A DNA stretch of 4,692 nucleotides. Origin: a virus. Its lineage: Duplodnaviria > Heunggongvirae > Uroviricota > Caudoviricetes. Both the position numbers and the translations under genes were made by a program. Under the pieces are notes generated by a model that was not told the origin of the DNA, did not search any database, and saw nothing but the letters and a program-made list of their open reading frames with translations. Positions 1 through 4,692 of the stretch are shown here, piece by piece (the first letter of the stretch is position 1; every line of letters begins with the position of its first letter). Where the stretch lies: positions 1 to 4,692 of IMG/VR virus record IMGVR_UViG_2563366929_000001, one strand, 5' to 3'.

Positions 1-41
1 CGTTGACGGACTTCGGGGGAAAAACGAGTATTTTTAGTCAT
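1..41 (-). CDS. IS3-family transposase OrfA, 5' partial (first 13 codons; remainder lies outside the window)
   Basis: ATG at 41..39 on the minus strand preceded by AGAGG; translation MTKNTRFSPEVRQ matches the IS629-type OrfA N-terminus as I recall it. Mirror image of 4652-4692. Confidence 0.7.
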   Translation of the reverse strand, partial: MTKNTRFSPEVRQ

Positions 42-95
42 CCTGTTTACCTCTTTCTCAGGAAGTTTAGTCTCCAGGATTCCCGGGGCGGTTCA
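1..95 (-). mobile_element. IS3-family insertion sequence (IS629-like), inward-facing orfA-proximal end; element continues beyond the window start
   Basis: Positions 1-95 are the exact reverse complement of 4598-4692 (checked base by base). Read on the minus strand the terminus starts TGAACCGCCCCGGG at position 95, followed by a Shine-Dalgarno and ATG at 41..39. I recognise the terminus and the MTKNTRFSPEVRQ N-terminus as IS629/IS1203-type from memory; no database search was run. Confidence 0.85.
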
Positions 96-134
96 GAGGG
101 TCATTATGGTGAATATGCTGGCTTGCTGGTGGGC

Positions 135-149
135 TATTCCTGCTCTTTA
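135..149. repeat. Direct repeat copy A: TATTCCTGCTCTTTA
   Basis: 15/15 identical to 393-407 on the same strand. Flanks add similarity (GG before, C-TTGC after), giving roughly 27 bp with a few mismatches. On the minus strand it reads KEQE plus a stop codon (TAG). Confidence 0.8.
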
Positions 150-391
150 ACATTGCCATGCCGCGATGTTTTCCAGGTATGCGACCCCATTTTTGTGTGC
201 CTGTACTCTTTAAGGAATTTCTCAAGGACAAACGCACAGGGCGCGAATCTGTCTGACTCATGCTCGTACGCTATCTTTCTGCGCTGTCTTTTCCGTGCCG
301 GTGATGGTGTATTGGTTGATTCTTTGTTGGTCATGGCGCTGCCCTGTAAAATAATGCACCGTAGTTCCTCACACCACGGCACCTATAGTGG

Positions 392-697
392 TTATTCCTG
401 CTCTTTAGCTTTGCGCCGCTGGAGTTCTTCACGCGCGACGGTGACGAGTTGCCCGATTTCCTCGGCAGCTTTGACTCCGATTTTTTCCACCTGCGCTAGG
501 GCATCGAGCGAAGAAACCAGGGGATTTTCTCCGCTTCCTTCTGCCTGGCGGCGGGCGATTTCACCGCGAACGGCTGTAATCACGAAAGCGGCTATTGTTT
601 CCCCTTCCGTTTTCGAATTTTCCATTTCCTCGATTACATCATGGGGGAAGCGGATATTTTTCATTTGCGATCTGCTGTTGATGTTTCCTGTTGCCAT
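392..697 (-). CDS. Small putative DNA-binding regulator, possibly ribbon-helix-helix (Arc/CopG-like); 101 aa, or 90 aa if translation starts at the ATG at 664
   Basis: Intact ORF divergent from the rightward operon. The segment NIRFPHDVIEEMEN followed by GETIAAFVITAVRGEIARR has the strand-then-helix pattern of Arc/Mnt-type proteins (compared from memory). Neither candidate start has a strong Shine-Dalgarno, so the start is uncertain. Fold assignment is inference. Confidence 0.5.
   Translation of the reverse strand: MATGNINSRSQMKNIRFPHDVIEEMENSKTEGETIAAFVITAVRGEIARRQAEGSGENPLVSSLDALAQVEKIGVKAAEEIGQLVTVAREELQRRKAKEQE
393..407. repeat. Direct repeat copy B: TATTCCTGCTCTTTA, overlapping the last codons of the 392-697 minus-strand gene
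   Basis: 15/15 identical to 135-149. On the minus strand it encodes the C-terminal KEQE of the regulator gene; the TAA stop is at 394..392. Confidence 0.8.
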
Positions 698-718
698 CAG
701 AATGTCCGGTTATTTTGA

Positions 719-737
719 GGTGTGTACACATTACACC
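719..737. repeat. Operator-like palindrome 1 (GGTGTGTACACATTACACC), core TGTGTACACA perfectly palindromic
   Basis: Seen directly; GGTGT at 719-723 and ACACC at 733-737 flank the 10-bp palindrome. Overlaps a candidate leftward extended -10 (minus strand TGgTGTAAT, plus coordinates 730-738). Confidence 0.5.
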
Positions 738-759
738 AAAAGGTGTGTTGATAAAACAC

Positions 760-789
760 TTGACACTGTAGCACACTTAAATTTAATTT
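760..789 (+). promoter_or_regulatory. Candidate sigma70 promoter for the rightward operon: -35 TTGACA (760-765), 18-bp spacer, -10 TAATTT (784-789)
   Basis: Perfect -35 consensus. The -10 matches the consensus T, A and final T positions only. Prediction by eye, not experimentally supported. Confidence 0.35.
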
Positions 790-821
790 GTATATACACC
801 AATTGTTGTGGTGTATATACA
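789..821. repeat. Operator-like palindrome 2: 12-bp perfect inverted repeat TGTATATACACC (789-800) / GGTGTATATACA (810-821), 9-bp spacer
   Basis: Exact reverse-complement arms; sits over the predicted -10 and start region of the rightward promoter. Confidence 0.55.
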
Positions 822-887
822 GCAACGCCCCGCAGTGGTGGCACACATGCAGGGCGTCTAACCAAACCGTTAAACGAGGTAACGATT

Positions 888-1253
888 ATGGCTGGAACAC
901 AGCATACCCAAACTCACCCTAAATTTATATACACCTTCCTGGCGGTGCACCGTGATTGCATTGCTGACGGTAAAAACACTGTACACGTAGCCGCCGATAC
1001 GCTGGTTGATGCCTGCGAGATGCTCAATGACATGGGCTATATCTCGGCAACATGGAAAGGGCGCGAAGAAAACACGCTGTTTATTCAGAAATGCGAAAAC
1101 AATTTTATCTGGCGTTTTATCGCCCTGAGTACGGCACAACCGCGCGTGATTCACATCGAGGCCACCAGCGAACAGGAAGCACGCCAGCAATCTCCTGATG
1201 GCTGCGTGATGGTATTCGCTGCCCGTATTCGCCAGGAGGTGGAGCATGTGTAA
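888..1253 (+). CDS. Hypothetical protein (121 aa), first gene of the rightward operon
   Basis: ATG at 888 with GAGG 8 nt upstream (876-879). The stop TAA (1251-1253) overlaps the next gene's ATG (1246) in the 8-nt pattern ATGTGTAA. The 3..1253 ORF in the track is the same frame, but only the part from 888 is credible. No family recognised. Confidence 0.65.
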   Translation: MAGTQHTQTHPKFIYTFLAVHRDCIADGKNTVHVAADTLVDACEMLNDMGYISATWKGREENTLFIQKCENNFIWRFIALSTAQPRVIHIEATSEQEARQQSPDGCVMVFAARIRQEVEHV

Positions 1254-1470
1254 TGCAACATGGCCTGATGCAGCGGTAGACGCTATCAAAACGCTGATGG
1301 ATTCACTTATTGAGATTTCTGCTATCGCTGGTGTGGCGCATAAACACGCAGCCAGAGAATCAGAATGCATCTCCCATTATTTAGCATTTGTGCAGCTAAA
1401 AGCCGATCAGGCACTGGATAAGGCCGGAAAAATTATCATGGCTGATGTGCAGGAGGTGCACCATGCATAA
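1246..1470 (+). CDS. Hypothetical small protein (74 aa); C-terminus (DVQEVHHA) resembles that of gene 4
   Basis: ATG at 1246 with AGGAGG (1234-1239) 6 nt upstream; 8-nt overlaps with both neighbours. Confidence 0.65.
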   Translation: MCNATWPDAAVDAIKTLMDSLIEISAIAGVAHKHAARESECISHYLAFVQLKADQALDKAGKIIMADVQEVHHA

Positions 1471-1828
1471 CCTGTCAATTTCTGACCTTAACAGCATTCA
1501 GTTTGACGAGAAATTTACCGGGCAGTTGCTGGTCAATGTGGAGAACGGGCGCATAGTGCGTAATTACCACCTGCCGGATGGTGCAATTGCCGGAAGCGTT
1601 GAAGCATTGCTGGAGCTGGCGGAACGTGCGCGACTGATTAAGCCGTCAACGTGCCATCACGATGATGATCTGCATTTTACCGGGTGTATGGTGAGTCACT
1701 ACGAAAACGGCGTTGAAGTATCCTGCGAACGTCTGCGTGATGATTGCTGTTTCGGCACACTGCCGGAATTTATCGAATTGCTGACCAGTTGCGGTTATCA
1801 GGTCATTCAGGGGGGTAAACATGCGTGA
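1463..1828 (+). CDS. Hypothetical protein (121 aa) made of two tandem copies of an FTG-motif domain; the C-terminal copy is Cys/His-rich
   Basis: ATG at 1463 with AGGAGG (1451-1456) 6 nt upstream, preferred over the track's ATG at 1445, which has no Shine-Dalgarno. Internal repeat FTGQLLVNVENGRIV / FTGCMVSHYENGVEV. Stop TGA at 1826-1828 overlaps the next ATG at 1821. Confidence 0.65.
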   Translation: MHNLSISDLNSIQFDEKFTGQLLVNVENGRIVRNYHLPDGAIAGSVEALLELAERARLIKPSTCHHDDDLHFTGCMVSHYENGVEVSCERLRDDCCFGTLPEFIELLTSCGYQVIQGGKHA

Positions 1829-2054
1829 TGATCGTTTTAATTCCCTGAAACAGGAGTTTGATGGCGCACCGGAAGATACATCGGGCGCATTGTTGAGCAT
1901 TGCTGACATGATGAAAGCTGCATATTTTCTTATCAATACCAGTGGCTACAAGTCAGAGGGTGAAATGATTCTTAGTATTGCGTCGGACTATGCTGAATAT
2001 GTGGCAGAGACGCGTTACAGAAGAAAATCTCTGGAGGATGTAAGCCATGCATAA
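1821..2054 (+). CDS. Hypothetical small protein (77 aa); C-terminus (LEDVSHA) resembles that of gene 2
   Basis: ATG at 1821 preceded by GGGGGT (1811-1816); 8-nt overlap ATGCATAA with the next gene. Confidence 0.6.
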   Translation: MRDDRFNSLKQEFDGAPEDTSGALLSIADMMKAAYFLINTSGYKSEGEMILSIASDYAEYVAETRYRRKSLEDVSHA

Positions 2055-2247
2055 TCATGAAGCGCATGTACCCGTAGTGCTTAATGTGCCAGATGATTTC
2101 ACCGGACGCGTGCTGGTTTACCTGGATAAAGGGAAAGTGAAATCACAATGCCGACTGAAAAGTAATGAGATTGTTGGTTCTCCTGAATTTTTTTCTGAAC
2201 TTTGTATTCGTGCGGAAATAAAACCGGAACTGCTGACAGGAAAATAA
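2047..2247 (+). CDS. Hypothetical small protein (66 aa), single-copy FTG-motif domain paralogous to both halves of gene 3
   Basis: ATG at 2047 with GGAGGA (2033-2038) 8 nt upstream. By-eye alignment to the gene 3 N-terminal domain gives about 40% identity over ~44 residues (FTGRVLVYLDKGKV..., ...ELCIRAEIKP versus ...ELAERARLIKP). Confidence 0.65.
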   Translation: MHNHEAHVPVVLNVPDDFTGRVLVYLDKGKVKSQCRLKSNEIVGSPEFFSELCIRAEIKPELLTGK

Positions 2248-2251
2248 AACC

Positions 2252-2542
2252 ATGAAAAAGAAATATTCTGGCTTTACTGCCAGCGGCCTCTCTCGGCCTG
2301 AAATCCGCCCCGGTGATATTTTCCGGGACACCAGACGCGGGGGACGGGTGGTTATTCGTCACGTTACGCCAGGCAATATCACCTACCGCCGTGAGGCTTA
2401 CGAATATGACTGCGTAATGCCGCGCCGTCAGTTTGAGCGTGATTTTATTCTGGTGGAAAACAAACAACAGGCAGTGGCGAGACGTGCAGCCACGAATATT
2501 AAAAAAATCCGGGCAATGTTGGTTGCGGGAGGTAAGAAGTGA
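2252..2542 (+). CDS. Hypothetical basic small protein (96 aa); loosely reminiscent of DUF4222-type prophage proteins (low confidence)
   Basis: ATG at 2252, 4 nt after the previous stop, with only a weak Shine-Dalgarno (AGGA about 11 nt upstream). Stop TGA (2540-2542) overlaps the GTG start of the replication gene. The family hint comes from a remembered RPGD...RRG...V pattern, not a search. Confidence 0.55.
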   Translation: MKKKYSGFTASGLSRPEIRPGDIFRDTRRGGRVVIRHVTPGNITYRREAYEYDCVMPRRQFERDFILVENKQQAVARRAATNIKKIRAMLVAGGKK

Positions 2543-4344
2543 AAAACGCACCGAATTTAAAATATCAGCCGAAGGATAAATTCACCGAGGTAATCATTTT
2601 TGCCGGGACGGATGCTTACGCCCATGCTCAACACTGGATTGAAAGCGAAGGACGAAAACACGGCGATAACGTGCCTCCTGTTTACCTGGGGCCAAAGCAA
2701 CTGGCAGACCTGGCGAATATCCGCATTGTCGACGATGAACGCCGCTTTGCGCGTGTCTATCTCGCGGGGGAGATAGAGCCAATCCAGATCAATGCTATTG
2801 CTGAAAAGCTGGCGCTGGCTGGTGTACAGGACGCGAAATTATACAAAGGTATCACCGACCGGGAGCCGGAAAACTGGCGCGACTACCTGCAACGGATCCG
2901 CGAACAGGCAGAGAGTGGGGAAGTTTCAGCGATGAAATTAGCCACAAAAAATATTGACCTATCCAGGCCAGCACTAAATCAGATGGGAGCCAGCCAGAGA
3001 GGGGAAGTGTTACTTGAATATTATGGAAGAGCACTGGCTATAAATGATGATTCTGATGTAGTTCACCATTACAACGGAATTGTCTGGGTGCCTGTATCTG
3101 ATAAGGAACTCCAGCGGTCTATGGCGAAGATTTTTATTGATGCTGGAATCAGTTATTCGCAAAACGCCATTAAATTTGCCGTAGACACAATGAAATTGAG
3201 CCTGCCTGTTATGGGCGGGGCAGACAGGAATCTTATTGGATTCAGTAACGGGGTATTTGATACCCGGACGGGAAATTTTCGGGAGCATAACAAAAATGAC
3301 TGGTTGTTAAATGCCAGTGAATTACCGTTCAGCCCACCAGCAGAGGGGGAAACGCTGGCAACACATGCGCCGAATTTCTGGAAGTGGCTGCGTCGTTCGG
3401 TGGCAGATAATGATCGTAAAGCTGATCGCGTACTGGCGGCATTATTCATGGTACTGGCGAACCGGTACGACTGGCAGTTATTCCTTGAGGTAACAGGCCC
3501 AGGCGGAAGCGGTAAAAGTGTGATGGCTGAGATTTGTACCATGCTGGCGGGTAAGGCCAACACAGTATCGGCAAGCATGAAGGCTCTGGAAGACGCAAGG
3601 GAACGCGCGTTAGTAGTTGGCTTTTCGCTGATTATCATGCCGGATATGACTCGCTACGCTGGCGATGGTGCAGGAATTAAGGCAATTACTGGCGGCGACA
3701 AGGTGGCAATTGATCCGAAACATAAAGCCCCCTACTCCACACGTATTCCGGCAGTAGTGCTTGCGGTAAACAATAACGCCATGTCATTCAGTGACCGAAG
3801 CGGGGGGATCTCGCGTCGTAGGGTGATATTTAATTTCTCTGAGGTCGTACCGGAGAACGAACGCGATCCCATGCTGGCGGAAAAGATAGAAGGCGAACTG
3901 GCGGTAGTGATTCGCCATTTGCTAACACGATTTACCGACCAGGACGAAGCTAAAAGACTACTTTATGAGCAGCAAAAATCAGAAGAAGCGCTGTTGATAA
4001 AGCGCGAAGGTGATTCACTGGTGGACTTTTGCGGCTATCTGATGTCGTTGGTTAAATGTGAAGGAATGATGGTGGGCAATGCGGAAATAGTGCCATTTAG
4101 CCCGAGGCGATACCTGTATCATGCTTATTTAGCCTATATGTCAGCGCATGGCCTGGGAAAACCAGTATCACTGACACGCTTTGGTACTGATATGCCAGGA
4201 GCTATGGCGGAATACGGAAAGGAGTATAAGCGGGCTAAATGCACTAAAGGCCCGGATAAAGGGCGAGTGATAACAAATGTTCTGTTAGATGATGATGCTG
4301 ATGGCTGGTTGCCAGCAGCTACAGGGATTAACGACAGAACATAA
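2539..4344 (+). CDS. Replication protein with P4 alpha / D5-type SF3 helicase (NTPase) C-terminal domain; putative primase-helicase/replication initiator of the element (601 aa, GTG start)
   Basis: Walker A motif GPGGSGKS (nt 3496-3519). Downstream ITGGDKVAIDPKHK (from nt 3685) followed by VVLAVNNN resembles the conserved motifs of the phage/plasmid primase P4-family C-terminal domain as I recall them. GTG at 2539 with GGAGG (2528-2532) 6 nt upstream; the first in-frame ATG is ~130 codons downstream, so GTG is the likely start. I did not recognise a canonical Toprim EGxxD motif in the N-terminal ~320 aa. Confidence 0.85.
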   Translation: MKNAPNLKYQPKDKFTEVIIFAGTDAYAHAQHWIESEGRKHGDNVPPVYLGPKQLADLANIRIVDDERRFARVYLAGEIEPIQINAIAEKLALAGVQDAKLYKGITDREPENWRDYLQRIREQAESGEVSAMKLATKNIDLSRPALNQMGASQRGEVLLEYYGRALAINDDSDVVHHYNGIVWVPVSDKELQRSMAKIFIDAGISYSQNAIKFAVDTMKLSLPVMGGADRNLIGFSNGVFDTRTGNFREHNKNDWLLNASELPFSPPAEGETLATHAPNFWKWLRRSVADNDRKADRVLAALFMVLANRYDWQLFLEVTGPGGSGKSVMAEICTMLAGKANTVSASMKALEDARERALVVGFSLIIMPDMTRYAGDGAGIKAITGGDKVAIDPKHKAPYSTRIPAVVLAVNNNAMSFSDRSGGISRRRVIFNFSEVVPENERDPMLAEKIEGELAVVIRHLLTRFTDQDEAKRLLYEQQKSEEALLIKREGDSLVDFCGYLMSLVKCEGMMVGNAEIVPFSPRRYLYHAYLAYMSAHGLGKPVSLTRFGTDMPGAMAEYGKEYKRAKCTKGPDKGRVITNVLLDDDADGWLPAATGINDRT

Positions 4345-4371
4345 TACGAAATTTATAAGCTGAAACGTAAA

Positions 4372-4572
4372 GGTAGACGGTTGGTAGACAGATTCACTTA
4401 ACCCTCTACCAACCATCTACCAATTAATATTTTGAATTATAAAGATATTTTCAATGTGGTAGAGAGGTAGACAGTTATTTCTATATTCCTAAACCACGGG
4501 GGGTATATAAAAAACAGATAGTTAAGGGGGCATTTTTTAAATTTCTCTTTTAACTGTCTACACTGTCTACCA
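4372..4572. repeat. Iteron array and AT-rich tracts directly downstream of the replication gene; candidate origin of replication (P4 crr/ori analogue)
   Basis: GGTAGA(C/G) in forward orientation at 4372, 4383, 4458 and 4466 (two as GGTAGACAG). Reverse-complement copies at 4405-4410, 4416-4421 and a tandem 9-mer pair ACTGTCTAC at 4553-4561 and 4562-4570. Several pairs are spaced 11 bp apart, about one helical turn. AT-rich stretches at 4421-4457 and 4476-4553. Confidence 0.6.
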
Positions 4573-4597
4573 TTTAGTAAAAATCATTAATTATCAA

Positions 4598-4692
4598 TGA
4601 ACCGCCCCGGGAATCCTGGAGACTAAACTTCCTGAGAAAGAGGTAAACAGGATGACTAAAAATACTCGTTTTTCCCCCGAAGTCCGTCAACG
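4598..4692 (+). mobile_element. IS3-family insertion sequence (IS629-like), inward-facing orfA-proximal end; element continues beyond the window end
   Basis: TGAACCGCCCCGGGAATCCTGGAGACTAAACTTCC... begins at 4598, with Shine-Dalgarno AGAGG and ATG at 4652. Exact reverse complement of 1-95. Confidence 0.85.
4652..4692 (+). CDS. IS3-family transposase OrfA, 5' partial (first 13 codons)
   Basis: ATG at 4652; translation MTKNTRFSPEVRQ, then the window ends. Confidence 0.7.
   Translation, partial: MTKNTRFSPEVRQ

Follow-up and report, generated by a model that had tools for sequence, protein, structure and literature searches.

Two IS629 copies in the replication module of a satellite-like thrW island of Escherichia coli, very probably the result of separate insertions

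IS629 (isoforms IS1203 and IS3411) is an IS3-family insertion sequence prevalent in Escherichia coli O157:H7 and Shigella. Members of the family move by a copy-out-paste-in pathway with a circular intermediate, and adjacent deletions are known for IS629 (bioRxiv 10.1101/2023.06.07.543989; PMC3219604). Its target duplications are 3 to 4 bp long and are kept at only 21 of 47 O157 sites, the other 26 having no duplication (PMC3271280), and it prefers prophage-like elements (PMC3271280; bioRxiv 10.1101/2023.06.07.543989). In compound transposons such as Tn10/IS10 and Tn5/IS50, a segment is bracketed by two inverted copies of one IS. Satellite phage P4 and Gram-negative PICI of the EcCICFT073 type have their integrase beside a tRNA att site, encode AlpA and place an iteron origin after the pri-rep gene (Fillol-Salom et al. 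2018, PMC6092414). The VAT pathogenicity island lies at thrW, according to Parreira and Gyles (2003) as cited in PMC7545054.

Here, we analyzed a stretch of 4,692 nucleotides (the window) in which a replication module stands between two IS629 ends. The window is very probably one contig with the control and replication part of a satellite-like thrW island, interrupted by two IS629 copies that arrived separately. Its features are as follows.

1-95, minus strand: left IS629 copy, inverted; IRL terminus from 95 back to about 71, then the first 41 nt of orfA, with the ATG at complement 41-39
96-98, no strand: GAG, inner copy of the left-insertion target-site duplication (scaffold compared with genome L001)
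134-334, minus strand: 66-aa hypothetical ORF (WP_071603613.1 in the L001 annotation; phrog_21027, function unknown)
392-697, minus strand: YlcI/YnfO family protein, 101 aa (NCBIfam NF041551, 64 bits, cut-off 30; L001 annotation)
698-887, no strand: divergent intergenic control region, with a 13-bp inverted repeat TGTATATACACCA...TGGTGTATATACA at 789-821
888-1253, plus strand: Icd-like (host cell division inhibitor-like) protein, 121 aa (NCBIfam NF033153, 80.6 bits, cut-off 25; PHROG 6196/1743)
1246-2247, plus strand: four small overlapping ORFs of unknown function, 1246-1470, 1463-1828, 1821-2054 and 2047-2247 (ORF list; PHROG 340/2512/5146/24341)
2252-2542, plus strand: DUF4222 protein, 96 aa (Pfam PF13973, 69.9 bits, cut-off 27)
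2539-4344, plus strand: P4-alpha-family replication protein, 601 aa, with D5_N, DUF5906 (SF3 helicase P-loop) and a C-terminal P4 origin-binding domain
4345-4597, no strand: proximal part of an iteron-type origin, six GGTAGA(C/G) half-sites, truncated by the right IS
4598-4692, plus strand: right IS629 copy; IRL terminus, then the first 41 nt of orfA, with the ATG at 4652; the contig ends inside the repeat

A repeat search of the window showed that arms 1-95 and 4598-4692 are perfect reverse complements over 95 nt (100% complementary), which chance cannot produce. As the preliminary description had reported, each arm carries an IS terminus and the start of orfA: the left end of IS629 plus the initial 41 nt of the gene, which point outward and cover only its first 13 codons. 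The right arm reads TGAACCGCCCCGGGAATCC...ATG ACT AAA AAT ACT CGT TTT TCC CCC GAA GTC CGT CAA CG, and the IS629 terminal inverted repeats beginning TGAACCGCCCCGGG are found from 4598 onward and on the complement of 95 back to 1. Both arms match, base for base, the initial 95 nt of a complete IS of 1310 bp in L001 (19503-20812), which has 99.5% identity to a feature annotated 'IS3 family IS629' in LC567824.1. The IS3-family transposase (programmed frameshift) annotated in L001 starts at the position matching window 4652, and the same site in genome L002 is also annotated 'IS3 family transposase, programmed frameshift'. Comparison with L001 and LC567824.1 bears out two inverted IS629 copies whose IRL, orfA-proximal ends face the enclosed DNA. 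The IRR ends of both copies are readable in the source scaffold; the two terminal repeats are near-identical (IRL TGAACCGCCCCGGGAATCCTGGAGA, IRR TGAACCGCCCCGGGTTTCCTGGAGA). The closest genomes each have 13 to 21 matching places.

The length of the arms comes from the assembly. The window is the reverse complement of positions 5643-10334 of scaffold KE137004.1 (GCA_000408305.1; L012 below), part of a draft E. coli genome, and forms the contig between two N-gaps, one adjoining each IS arm. Since the IS is present more than once in the genome, assembly broke off 95 nt inside each copy, and this left the contig with a perfect terminal inverted repeat of 95 nt. The exact length of the arms is an artefact of the assembly, which broke the contig inside the repeat; the vat-side neighbour contig likewise stops exactly 95 nt inside the IS. 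We presume that the figure of 95 nt might reflect K=96 of ALLPATHS-LG. The interiors of both copies are scaffold gaps of 1065 and 1025 N, and the sequenced ends (95+218 nt and 95+95 nt) are all identical to the L001 copy. The IS spans on the scaffold, 1378 and 1215 bp, agree with a single IS of 1310 bp at either place; going by these gap-size estimates, both copies are probably full length and intact.

The interior (96-4597) occurs at full length and 100% identity in seven complete E. coli chromosomes. Its YlcI/YnfO gene diverges from the replication operon, a position that makes the product a candidate regulator, and the 13-bp inverted repeat at 789-821 is a putative operator. The Icd-like gene opens the rightward operon. 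Among the small ORFs, 1463-1828 and 2047-2247 are paralogues (BLASTP 34% identity, E 2e-07), no mutual similarity was detectable between the 74-aa and 77-aa ORFs, and neither Pfam nor NCBIfam gave a function for these ORFs. In the window, a consensus scan for promoters and terminators returned nothing above shuffled expectation, and a tRNA scan returned no tRNA.

The preliminary description had further placed a replication protein gene and a putative origin in the enclosed DNA, which does encode a replication protein, with iterons after it. The protein contains a P4 alpha-type SF3/D5 helicase core and a C-terminal origin-binding winged-helix domain: it matches D5_N (PF08706), DUF5906 (PF19263) and Pox_D5 (PF03288) in Pfam as well as phrog_864, DNA primase (E 1e-156), and residues 491-592 match PDB 1KA8, 'P4-specific DNA primase' (E 6e-19). 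Residues 1-133 have phrog_2850, of unknown function, as their sole match; no primase-domain family was detected, and TIGR01613 scored 95.8 bits, its cut-off being 108.7. The half-sites downstream lie on both strands in pairs 11 bp apart with AT-rich spacers, and exact GGTAGAC occurs five times, compared with 0.25 expected. In E189, which is IS-free here, four further half-sites and an 85% AT stretch follow past the IS site.

Judging by gene order, the enclosed 4.5 kb lies in its native place, an island of ~16.8 kb at tRNA-Thr (thrW), next to proA, whose content includes int, AlpA, AntA, YlcI/YnfO, Icd-like, the P4-alpha-type helicase-primase and iterons. In the seven complete chromosomes, the interior sits between antA and an IS3-family transposase, and the island starts with tRNA-Thr, integrase, a hypothetical gene, AlpA and AntA. 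The gene order of L012 is identical, with tRNA-Thr, integrase, AlpA and AntA directly left of the window; the AlpA gene (65 aa, PF05930 Phage_AlpA) is two genes left of it in L012 and relatives. Outside the window, tRNA-Thr is followed by the integrase in L001, L003, L004 and L012; in L003, 19 bp from the 3′ end of the tRNA recur 16.8 kb downstream. The absence of an integrase, att site and tRNA from the window, remarked on earlier, is accounted for by two independent insertions interrupting a larger element; all of these were located just outside. A relative of the module, accompanied by int, AlpA and a capsid/protease fusion, is found on a circular record of 10.8 kb, the only hint of helper-phage induction, excision, replication and packaging. 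By its gene content, we class the parent island as a PICI/P4-like, phage-satellite-like island.

At the left copy, the scaffold reads TTTAACTGAG/IRR..IS..IRL/GAGGGTCATT, with GAG on both sides, and L001, which is IS-free at this site, reads TTTAACT GAG GGTCATT, with a single GAG. The site is intergenic, between antA and the 66-aa ORF. The left copy came in by simple insertion and duplicated 3 bp of its target, GAG, the expected product of IS3-family copy-out-paste-in transposition. The left junction (window 1-420, IS plus interior) was covered nowhere in 5426 complete E. coli genomes. This copy would be the younger one, a strain-specific arrival that inserted in the opposite orientation and left a normal 3-bp duplication.

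The right junction, ...TTATCAA/TGAACCGCC (also given as TTATCAA/TGAACC), is the same as that of the complete IS in L001 and L002, and its site is common to at least seven complete E. coli genomes, which are without the left copy. No duplication is seen in the flanks of the right copy (CAA and TGT in L001; CAA and AAC in the source strain). Past this site, IS-free E189 and PD23 have four more GGTAGAC sites, ProQ/FinO and PerC. The right copy would be the older one, shared with a lineage of complete genomes and inserted in the iteron origin that directly follows the replication gene. The island sequence that it has replaced there, ~1.36 kb, comprised the distal iterons, one ProQ/FinO-like and one PerC-like gene, and a 380-aa gene in its 5′ part. 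In the source strain, the IRR end of this copy joins L001 position 31309 inside vat, skipping 10,496 bp, and the truncated vat toxin gene abuts the IS. This IRR-vat junction was not found in the 5426 complete E. coli genomes. The 10.5-kb deletion could be an IS-adjacent deletion or the result of recombination with a lost second copy in vat. The complete E. coli collection contained no genome with IS629 at the same vat site, so recombination with a pre-existing vat-borne IS629 cannot be shown; in APEC E19019 (L002), vat carries an IS629 elsewhere in the gene, flanked by an ACC duplication.

The preliminary description had favored a composite transposon. On this reading, both inverted IS629 copies and the replication module would have moved here as a 7.1-kb unit via the outer IRR ends. 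The geometry, with one IS present twice in inverted orientation and its terminal repeats near-identical, would fit this and has stood up, but the outer flanks (...AACTGAG and AACCAAAG...) differ, GAG against AAC, with no shared duplication and therefore no sign of movement as a unit. The only duplication surrounds the left copy, which places one of its repeats inside the supposed unit. The segment is moreover colinear with antA, AlpA, int and tRNA-Thr as in the IS-free relatives, where the locus is contiguous, and the seven complete genomes carry the right copy, not the left. Every locus inspected had the module in the thrW island, and a search of 72,556 plasmids gave partial, diverged matches only, with neither a full-length module match nor an IS-flanked unit. 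In IS911 and IS2, abutted IRR-IRL circle ends form a strong junction promoter; an IRR-IRR junction would be without the IRL half of it. We regard movement as a unit as extremely unlikely, and the alternative that had been set beside it, two independent insertions in a larger element, is the one that the left GAG duplication, the IS-free relatives and the island context favor.

Somewhat less remote, though still very improbable, is that inversion of the segment gave rise to the pair or took place afterwards, the route being homologous recombination between the inverted copies or an intramolecular replicative transposition by the right one, so that the module would be flipped or exist as two isomers. 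Inverted repeats of 1.3 kb with 4.5 kb between them offer a substrate for inversion by RecA, which is possible in principle, and all four junctions are identical in either isomer. The deposited scaffold, however, has the contig in its native orientation, as far as the depositor's scaffolding can be relied upon for the contig's orientation relative to its neighbours, and the IS3 family moves by copy-out-paste-in rather than Shapiro-type replicative transposition (bioRxiv 10.1101/2023.06.07.543989; PMC3219604). This orientation and mechanism also make it unlikely that the left copy originated through intramolecular replicative inversion. Nor do we give any real credence to the terminal repeat being purely an assembly artefact, with one IS copy or none beside the segment. 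The assembler did set the arm length and both IS interiors are N-gaps, but four distinct IS/flank junctions, two IRL and two IRR with different flanks, are readable, the right junction is confirmed in finished genomes, and the left junction pair has a textbook 3-bp duplication.

Taken together, these data point to two separate insertions, and the events are ordinary ones of already known kinds. Target-site duplications and IS-free relatives tell a composite transposon from two independent insertions, and the short contig with its perfect terminal inverted repeat illustrates clearly what results when an assembler halts in a multicopy IS. The locus documents IS629-driven decay of a satellite-like island (split origin, lost defence-like cargo, truncated vat) in one extraintestinal-type E. 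coli strain, which is consistent with known IS629 behaviour toward prophage-like elements and of little import beyond bookkeeping. It is very improbable that the inverted pair renders the 4.5-kb control-and-replication cassette invertible or transposable. If it did, flipping would uncouple the cassette from the int-alpA-antA side, and transposition via the outer IRR ends would be a second, integrase-independent form of mobility for a P4-alpha-type replicon.

The window copies share termini and the orfA start with IS629, and the complete L001 copy at the same site resembles it in length (1310 bp), in orfA/orfB and in the programmed -1 frameshift. As described for IS629, there is a 3-bp duplication at the new insertion and none, plus adjacent deletions, at the older one, and the location is a prophage-like element; the strain, however, is not O157 but an E. 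coli with vat and a thrW island, and both copies are partly sequenced. The bracketed segment looks like Tn10/IS10 or Tn5/IS50, but the unit is without an outer-end duplication, one copy has its own, the context is ancestral and no second occurrence is known; IS629 also belongs to a copy-out-paste-in family, not to the cut-and-paste IS4 family. Like PICI and P4, the parent island (~16.8 kb) has its integrase by a tRNA att site, AlpA and a replication gene followed by iterons, is without lysis or tail genes and has cargo resembling anti-phage defence genes, and its replication protein has the P4 alpha origin-binding domain. Unlike them, it showed no P4 sid, delta or psu genes and no capsid-related genes, and in the source strain it has decayed, its origin split and the distal two thirds deleted. 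The VAT pathogenicity island shares the thrW hotspot, with vat directly distal to the satellite-like island in L001, whereas the window has no VAT-PAI sequence and vat of the source strain is cut by the IS-associated deletion.

The window is closed at both ends by a perfect 95-nt inverted repeat (1-95 and 4598-4692), which we recovered in a repeat search. The right arm starts with TGAACCGCCCCGGGAATCC and continues from 4652 as ATG ACT AAA AAT ACT CGT...; the left arm mirrors it exactly. A complete 1,310-bp element in L001, a finished E. coli chromosome (19503-20812), opens with the identical 95 nt; it is annotated there as an IS3-family transposase with a programmed frameshift, whose start lies at the position matching window 4652, and it is 99.5% identical to the feature 'insertion sequence: IS3 family IS629' of the Stx2a phage record LC567824.1. 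The preliminary description of the arms as IS629-like, each carrying IRL and the start of orfA with the orfA-proximal ends facing inward, was correct: they match the start of this 1,310-bp IS629 element. A query containing the IS end found 13-21 matching places per genome in the closest finished genomes, and the IS is thus multicopy in the lineage.

A look-up of the 66-aa ORF beside the left junction gave ten places in public assemblies, one of them the source-strain scaffold KE137004.1 of GCA_000408305.1. The whole window is identical to the reverse complement of positions 5643-10334 of this scaffold, with N runs of 1,025 and 1,065 at its two sides, which shows it to be a single contig from a scaffolded assembly of short reads. 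Since the neighbor contig on the vat side likewise ends exactly 95 nt inside the IS, the arm length represents an assembler overlap within a multicopy repeat rather than a biological boundary. The inverted repeat itself is confirmed; the assembly accounts for its striking exactness. The scaffold spans of the two IS copies are 1,378 and 1,215 bp with unsequenced interiors, each compatible with one 1,310-bp IS. An integrase, att site, and tRNA are missing from the window, as had been noted, because the contig stops at the IS; all three are located 0.5-4 kb further left on the same scaffold.

In window orientation, the scaffold around the left copy reads ...CTCTATGTTTAACTGAG joined to TGAACCGCCCCGGGTTTCC (IRR, inverted IS) and, at the other end, (IRL) GGGGCGGTTCA joined to GAGGGTCATTATGG..., while the corresponding IS-free site in L001 reads ...CTCTATGTTTAACT GAG GGTCATTATGG..., with one GAG only. 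The left copy is a simple insertion that generated a 3-bp duplication (GAG) of its own, and IS629 duplications are 3-4 bp long (PMC3271280). Its target was the 459-bp spacer that separates antA from the 66-aa ORF, so the insertion left all annotated genes intact. The left junction was covered by none of the places searched in 5,426 finished genomes, so this insertion is recent or strain-specific.

It had been proposed that the two IS copies and the module between them moved as one composite transposon, but the tests proposed along with that reading, once applied, go against unit movement, and it is not supported. The outer flanks are unlike (GAG versus AAC), the left copy has its own duplication, the passenger DNA is colinear with its ancestral neighbors, and the locus is contiguous in IS-free genomes. 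In addition, the right copy is present without the left in related genomes, and we found no second occurrence of the IS-module-IS unit in finished genomes or on plasmids. The differing flanks, the left duplication, and the IS-free loci instead support the alternative also raised in the preliminary description, namely, two independent insertions in a larger element. IS3-family elements transpose by a copy-out-paste-in route via a circle (PMC3219604; bioRxiv 10.1101/2023.06.07.543989), which yields exactly such a simple insertion as the left copy shows. Two IS copies in a satellite-like island are ordinary IS629 biology. Recombination between the inverted copies could in principle have inverted the enclosed segment, as all four junction sequences are unchanged whichever isomer is present, and what counts against inversion is the depositor's scaffolding alone, which gives the native orientation. 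Future mobilization from the two IRR ends is conceivable, but nothing points to it.

The enclosed DNA (96-4597) is found at 100% identity over its full length in seven finished E. coli chromosomes and at 99.5-99.6% in four more. It is organized as follows.

Window left part, minus strand: 66-aa ORF and YlcI/YnfO-family gene
Between the minus- and plus-strand genes: divergent control region of 190 bp with a 13-bp inverted repeat
Plus strand: operon of tightly overlapping genes, comprising an Icd-like gene, four small ORFs, a DUF4222 gene, and the gene for a 601-aa replication protein

The 13-bp repeat, TGTATATACACCA(N7)TGGTGTATATACA, is a candidate operator; it is perfect and lies at 789-821, with the YlcI/YnfO gene to its left and the Icd-like operon to its right. 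Within the operon, a 23-nt motif, GCAGGAGGTGcAcCATGcaTAA, is common to three gene junctions (1231-1253, 1448-1470, and 2032-2054) and holds a Shine-Dalgarno sequence and an ATG that overlaps the upstream gene, whose stop follows 4-5 nt further on (ATGNNTAA). This arrangement points to translationally coupled genes and to a gene cassette duplicated in tandem. Two of the four small ORFs, at 1463-1828 and 2047-2247, are paralogous with 34% identity, and the former has the domain twice.

The replication protein has D5_N, DUF5906, and Pox_D5 domains, and its residues 491-592 match the structure of the P4 origin-binding domain (1KA8, E 6e-19). Profile searches with PHROG and NCBIfam detected no primase catalytic domain at its N terminus; residues 1-133 (window 2539-2940) match solely a function-unknown PHROG, and the database name is 'DNA primase family.' Downstream of the gene are iterons, with five exact GGTAGAC copies versus 0.25 expected, and six GGTAGA(C/G) half-sites at 4345-4597, paired 11 bp apart and on both strands. 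With a P4-type replication protein followed by GGTAGAC iterons, 'replication module with putative origin' was a fair description.

The window and the genome group of L001 and L002 (APEC E19019) have an identical right junction, ...TTAATTATCAA joined to TGAACCGCC, which marks the right copy as an older, shared one. No duplication flanks it (CAA versus TGT in L001). Alignment with the IS-free strain E189 showed that it replaced ∼1.36 kb of the island, including four further GGTAGAC half-sites with an 85% AT stretch (E189, L003 16277-16610), a ProQ/FinO-like gene, a PerC-like gene, and the 5′ end of a 380-aa gene. Because the distal half-sites were replaced, the window origin amounts to no more than the proximal portion of the ancestral iterons, and the module, its iterons split by the right IS, may lack a working origin.

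The right copy of the source strain has its IRR end joined to AACCAAAGCTG..., a sequence that lies within vat at L001 position 31309. This strain has additionally lost 10,496 bp, which held the remainder of the island, an integrase remnant, a MarR gene, and 2 kb from the 3′ end of vat. The deletion may have been IS-adjacent or may have arisen by recombination with a second, lost IS629 copy; both processes are documented for IS629 (bioRxiv 10.1101/2023.06.07.543989). The 5′ part of vat alone remains, adjoining the IS (KE137004.1, 2416-4523), and IS629 was found at this vat site in no finished genome. In APEC E19019, vat (29285-34502) is interrupted by an independent IS629 at a different site with an ACC duplication, so vat was hit twice by IS629 in related strains.

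In finished genomes and on the source scaffold, the island starts directly after tRNA-Thr (thrW), downstream of proBA. The thrW gene is a known integration hotspot and the VAT island site (PMC7545054); vat is just distal to the island in L001. An integrase, a hypothetical gene, an AlpA-family gene, and an AntA/AntB gene precede the window genes. Beyond the iterons, the IS-free strains E189 and PD23 carry the ProQ/FinO-like, PerC-like, and 380-aa genes, several small genes, and, in the distal island, a methyltransferase/DUF262/HEPN trio; in E189, the island ends 16.8 kb downstream, where 19 bp of the tRNA 3′ end recur. The distal cargo differs by strain (L003 21276-24374; L010 and L014 1-963), with a DNA methyltransferase, a DUF262/GmrSD_N gene, and a HEPN nuclease in some and an OLD-like AAA_15/TOPRIM protein in others. 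It resembles a variable anti-phage defense slot and is wholly deleted in the source strain. In CP164873.1, the stretch that separates the island integrase from the chromosome holds two more IS3-family transposase genes (14430-17864), oppositely oriented, another sign of IS build-up in the thrW region of this lineage.

NZ_CP148328.1 (1-10790), deposited as an E. coli plasmid, is a circular record of 10.8 kb that contains a diverged relative of the module with ∼85% identity to portions of the window. It carries int, AlpA, YlcI/YnfO, Icd-like, DUF4222, and primase-like genes and a ClpP-protease/major-capsid fusion, and resembles a PICI-type satellite that was excised and then assembled as an episome. 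We regard the thrW island as PICI/P4-like, with putative helper dependence, and do not call it a proven PICI. Gram-negative PICIs are defined by gene content such as integrase, AlpA, and pri-rep plus origin (PMC6092414), and the island is like them in having these genes, in carrying no lysis or tail genes, and in its similar size (PMC6092414).
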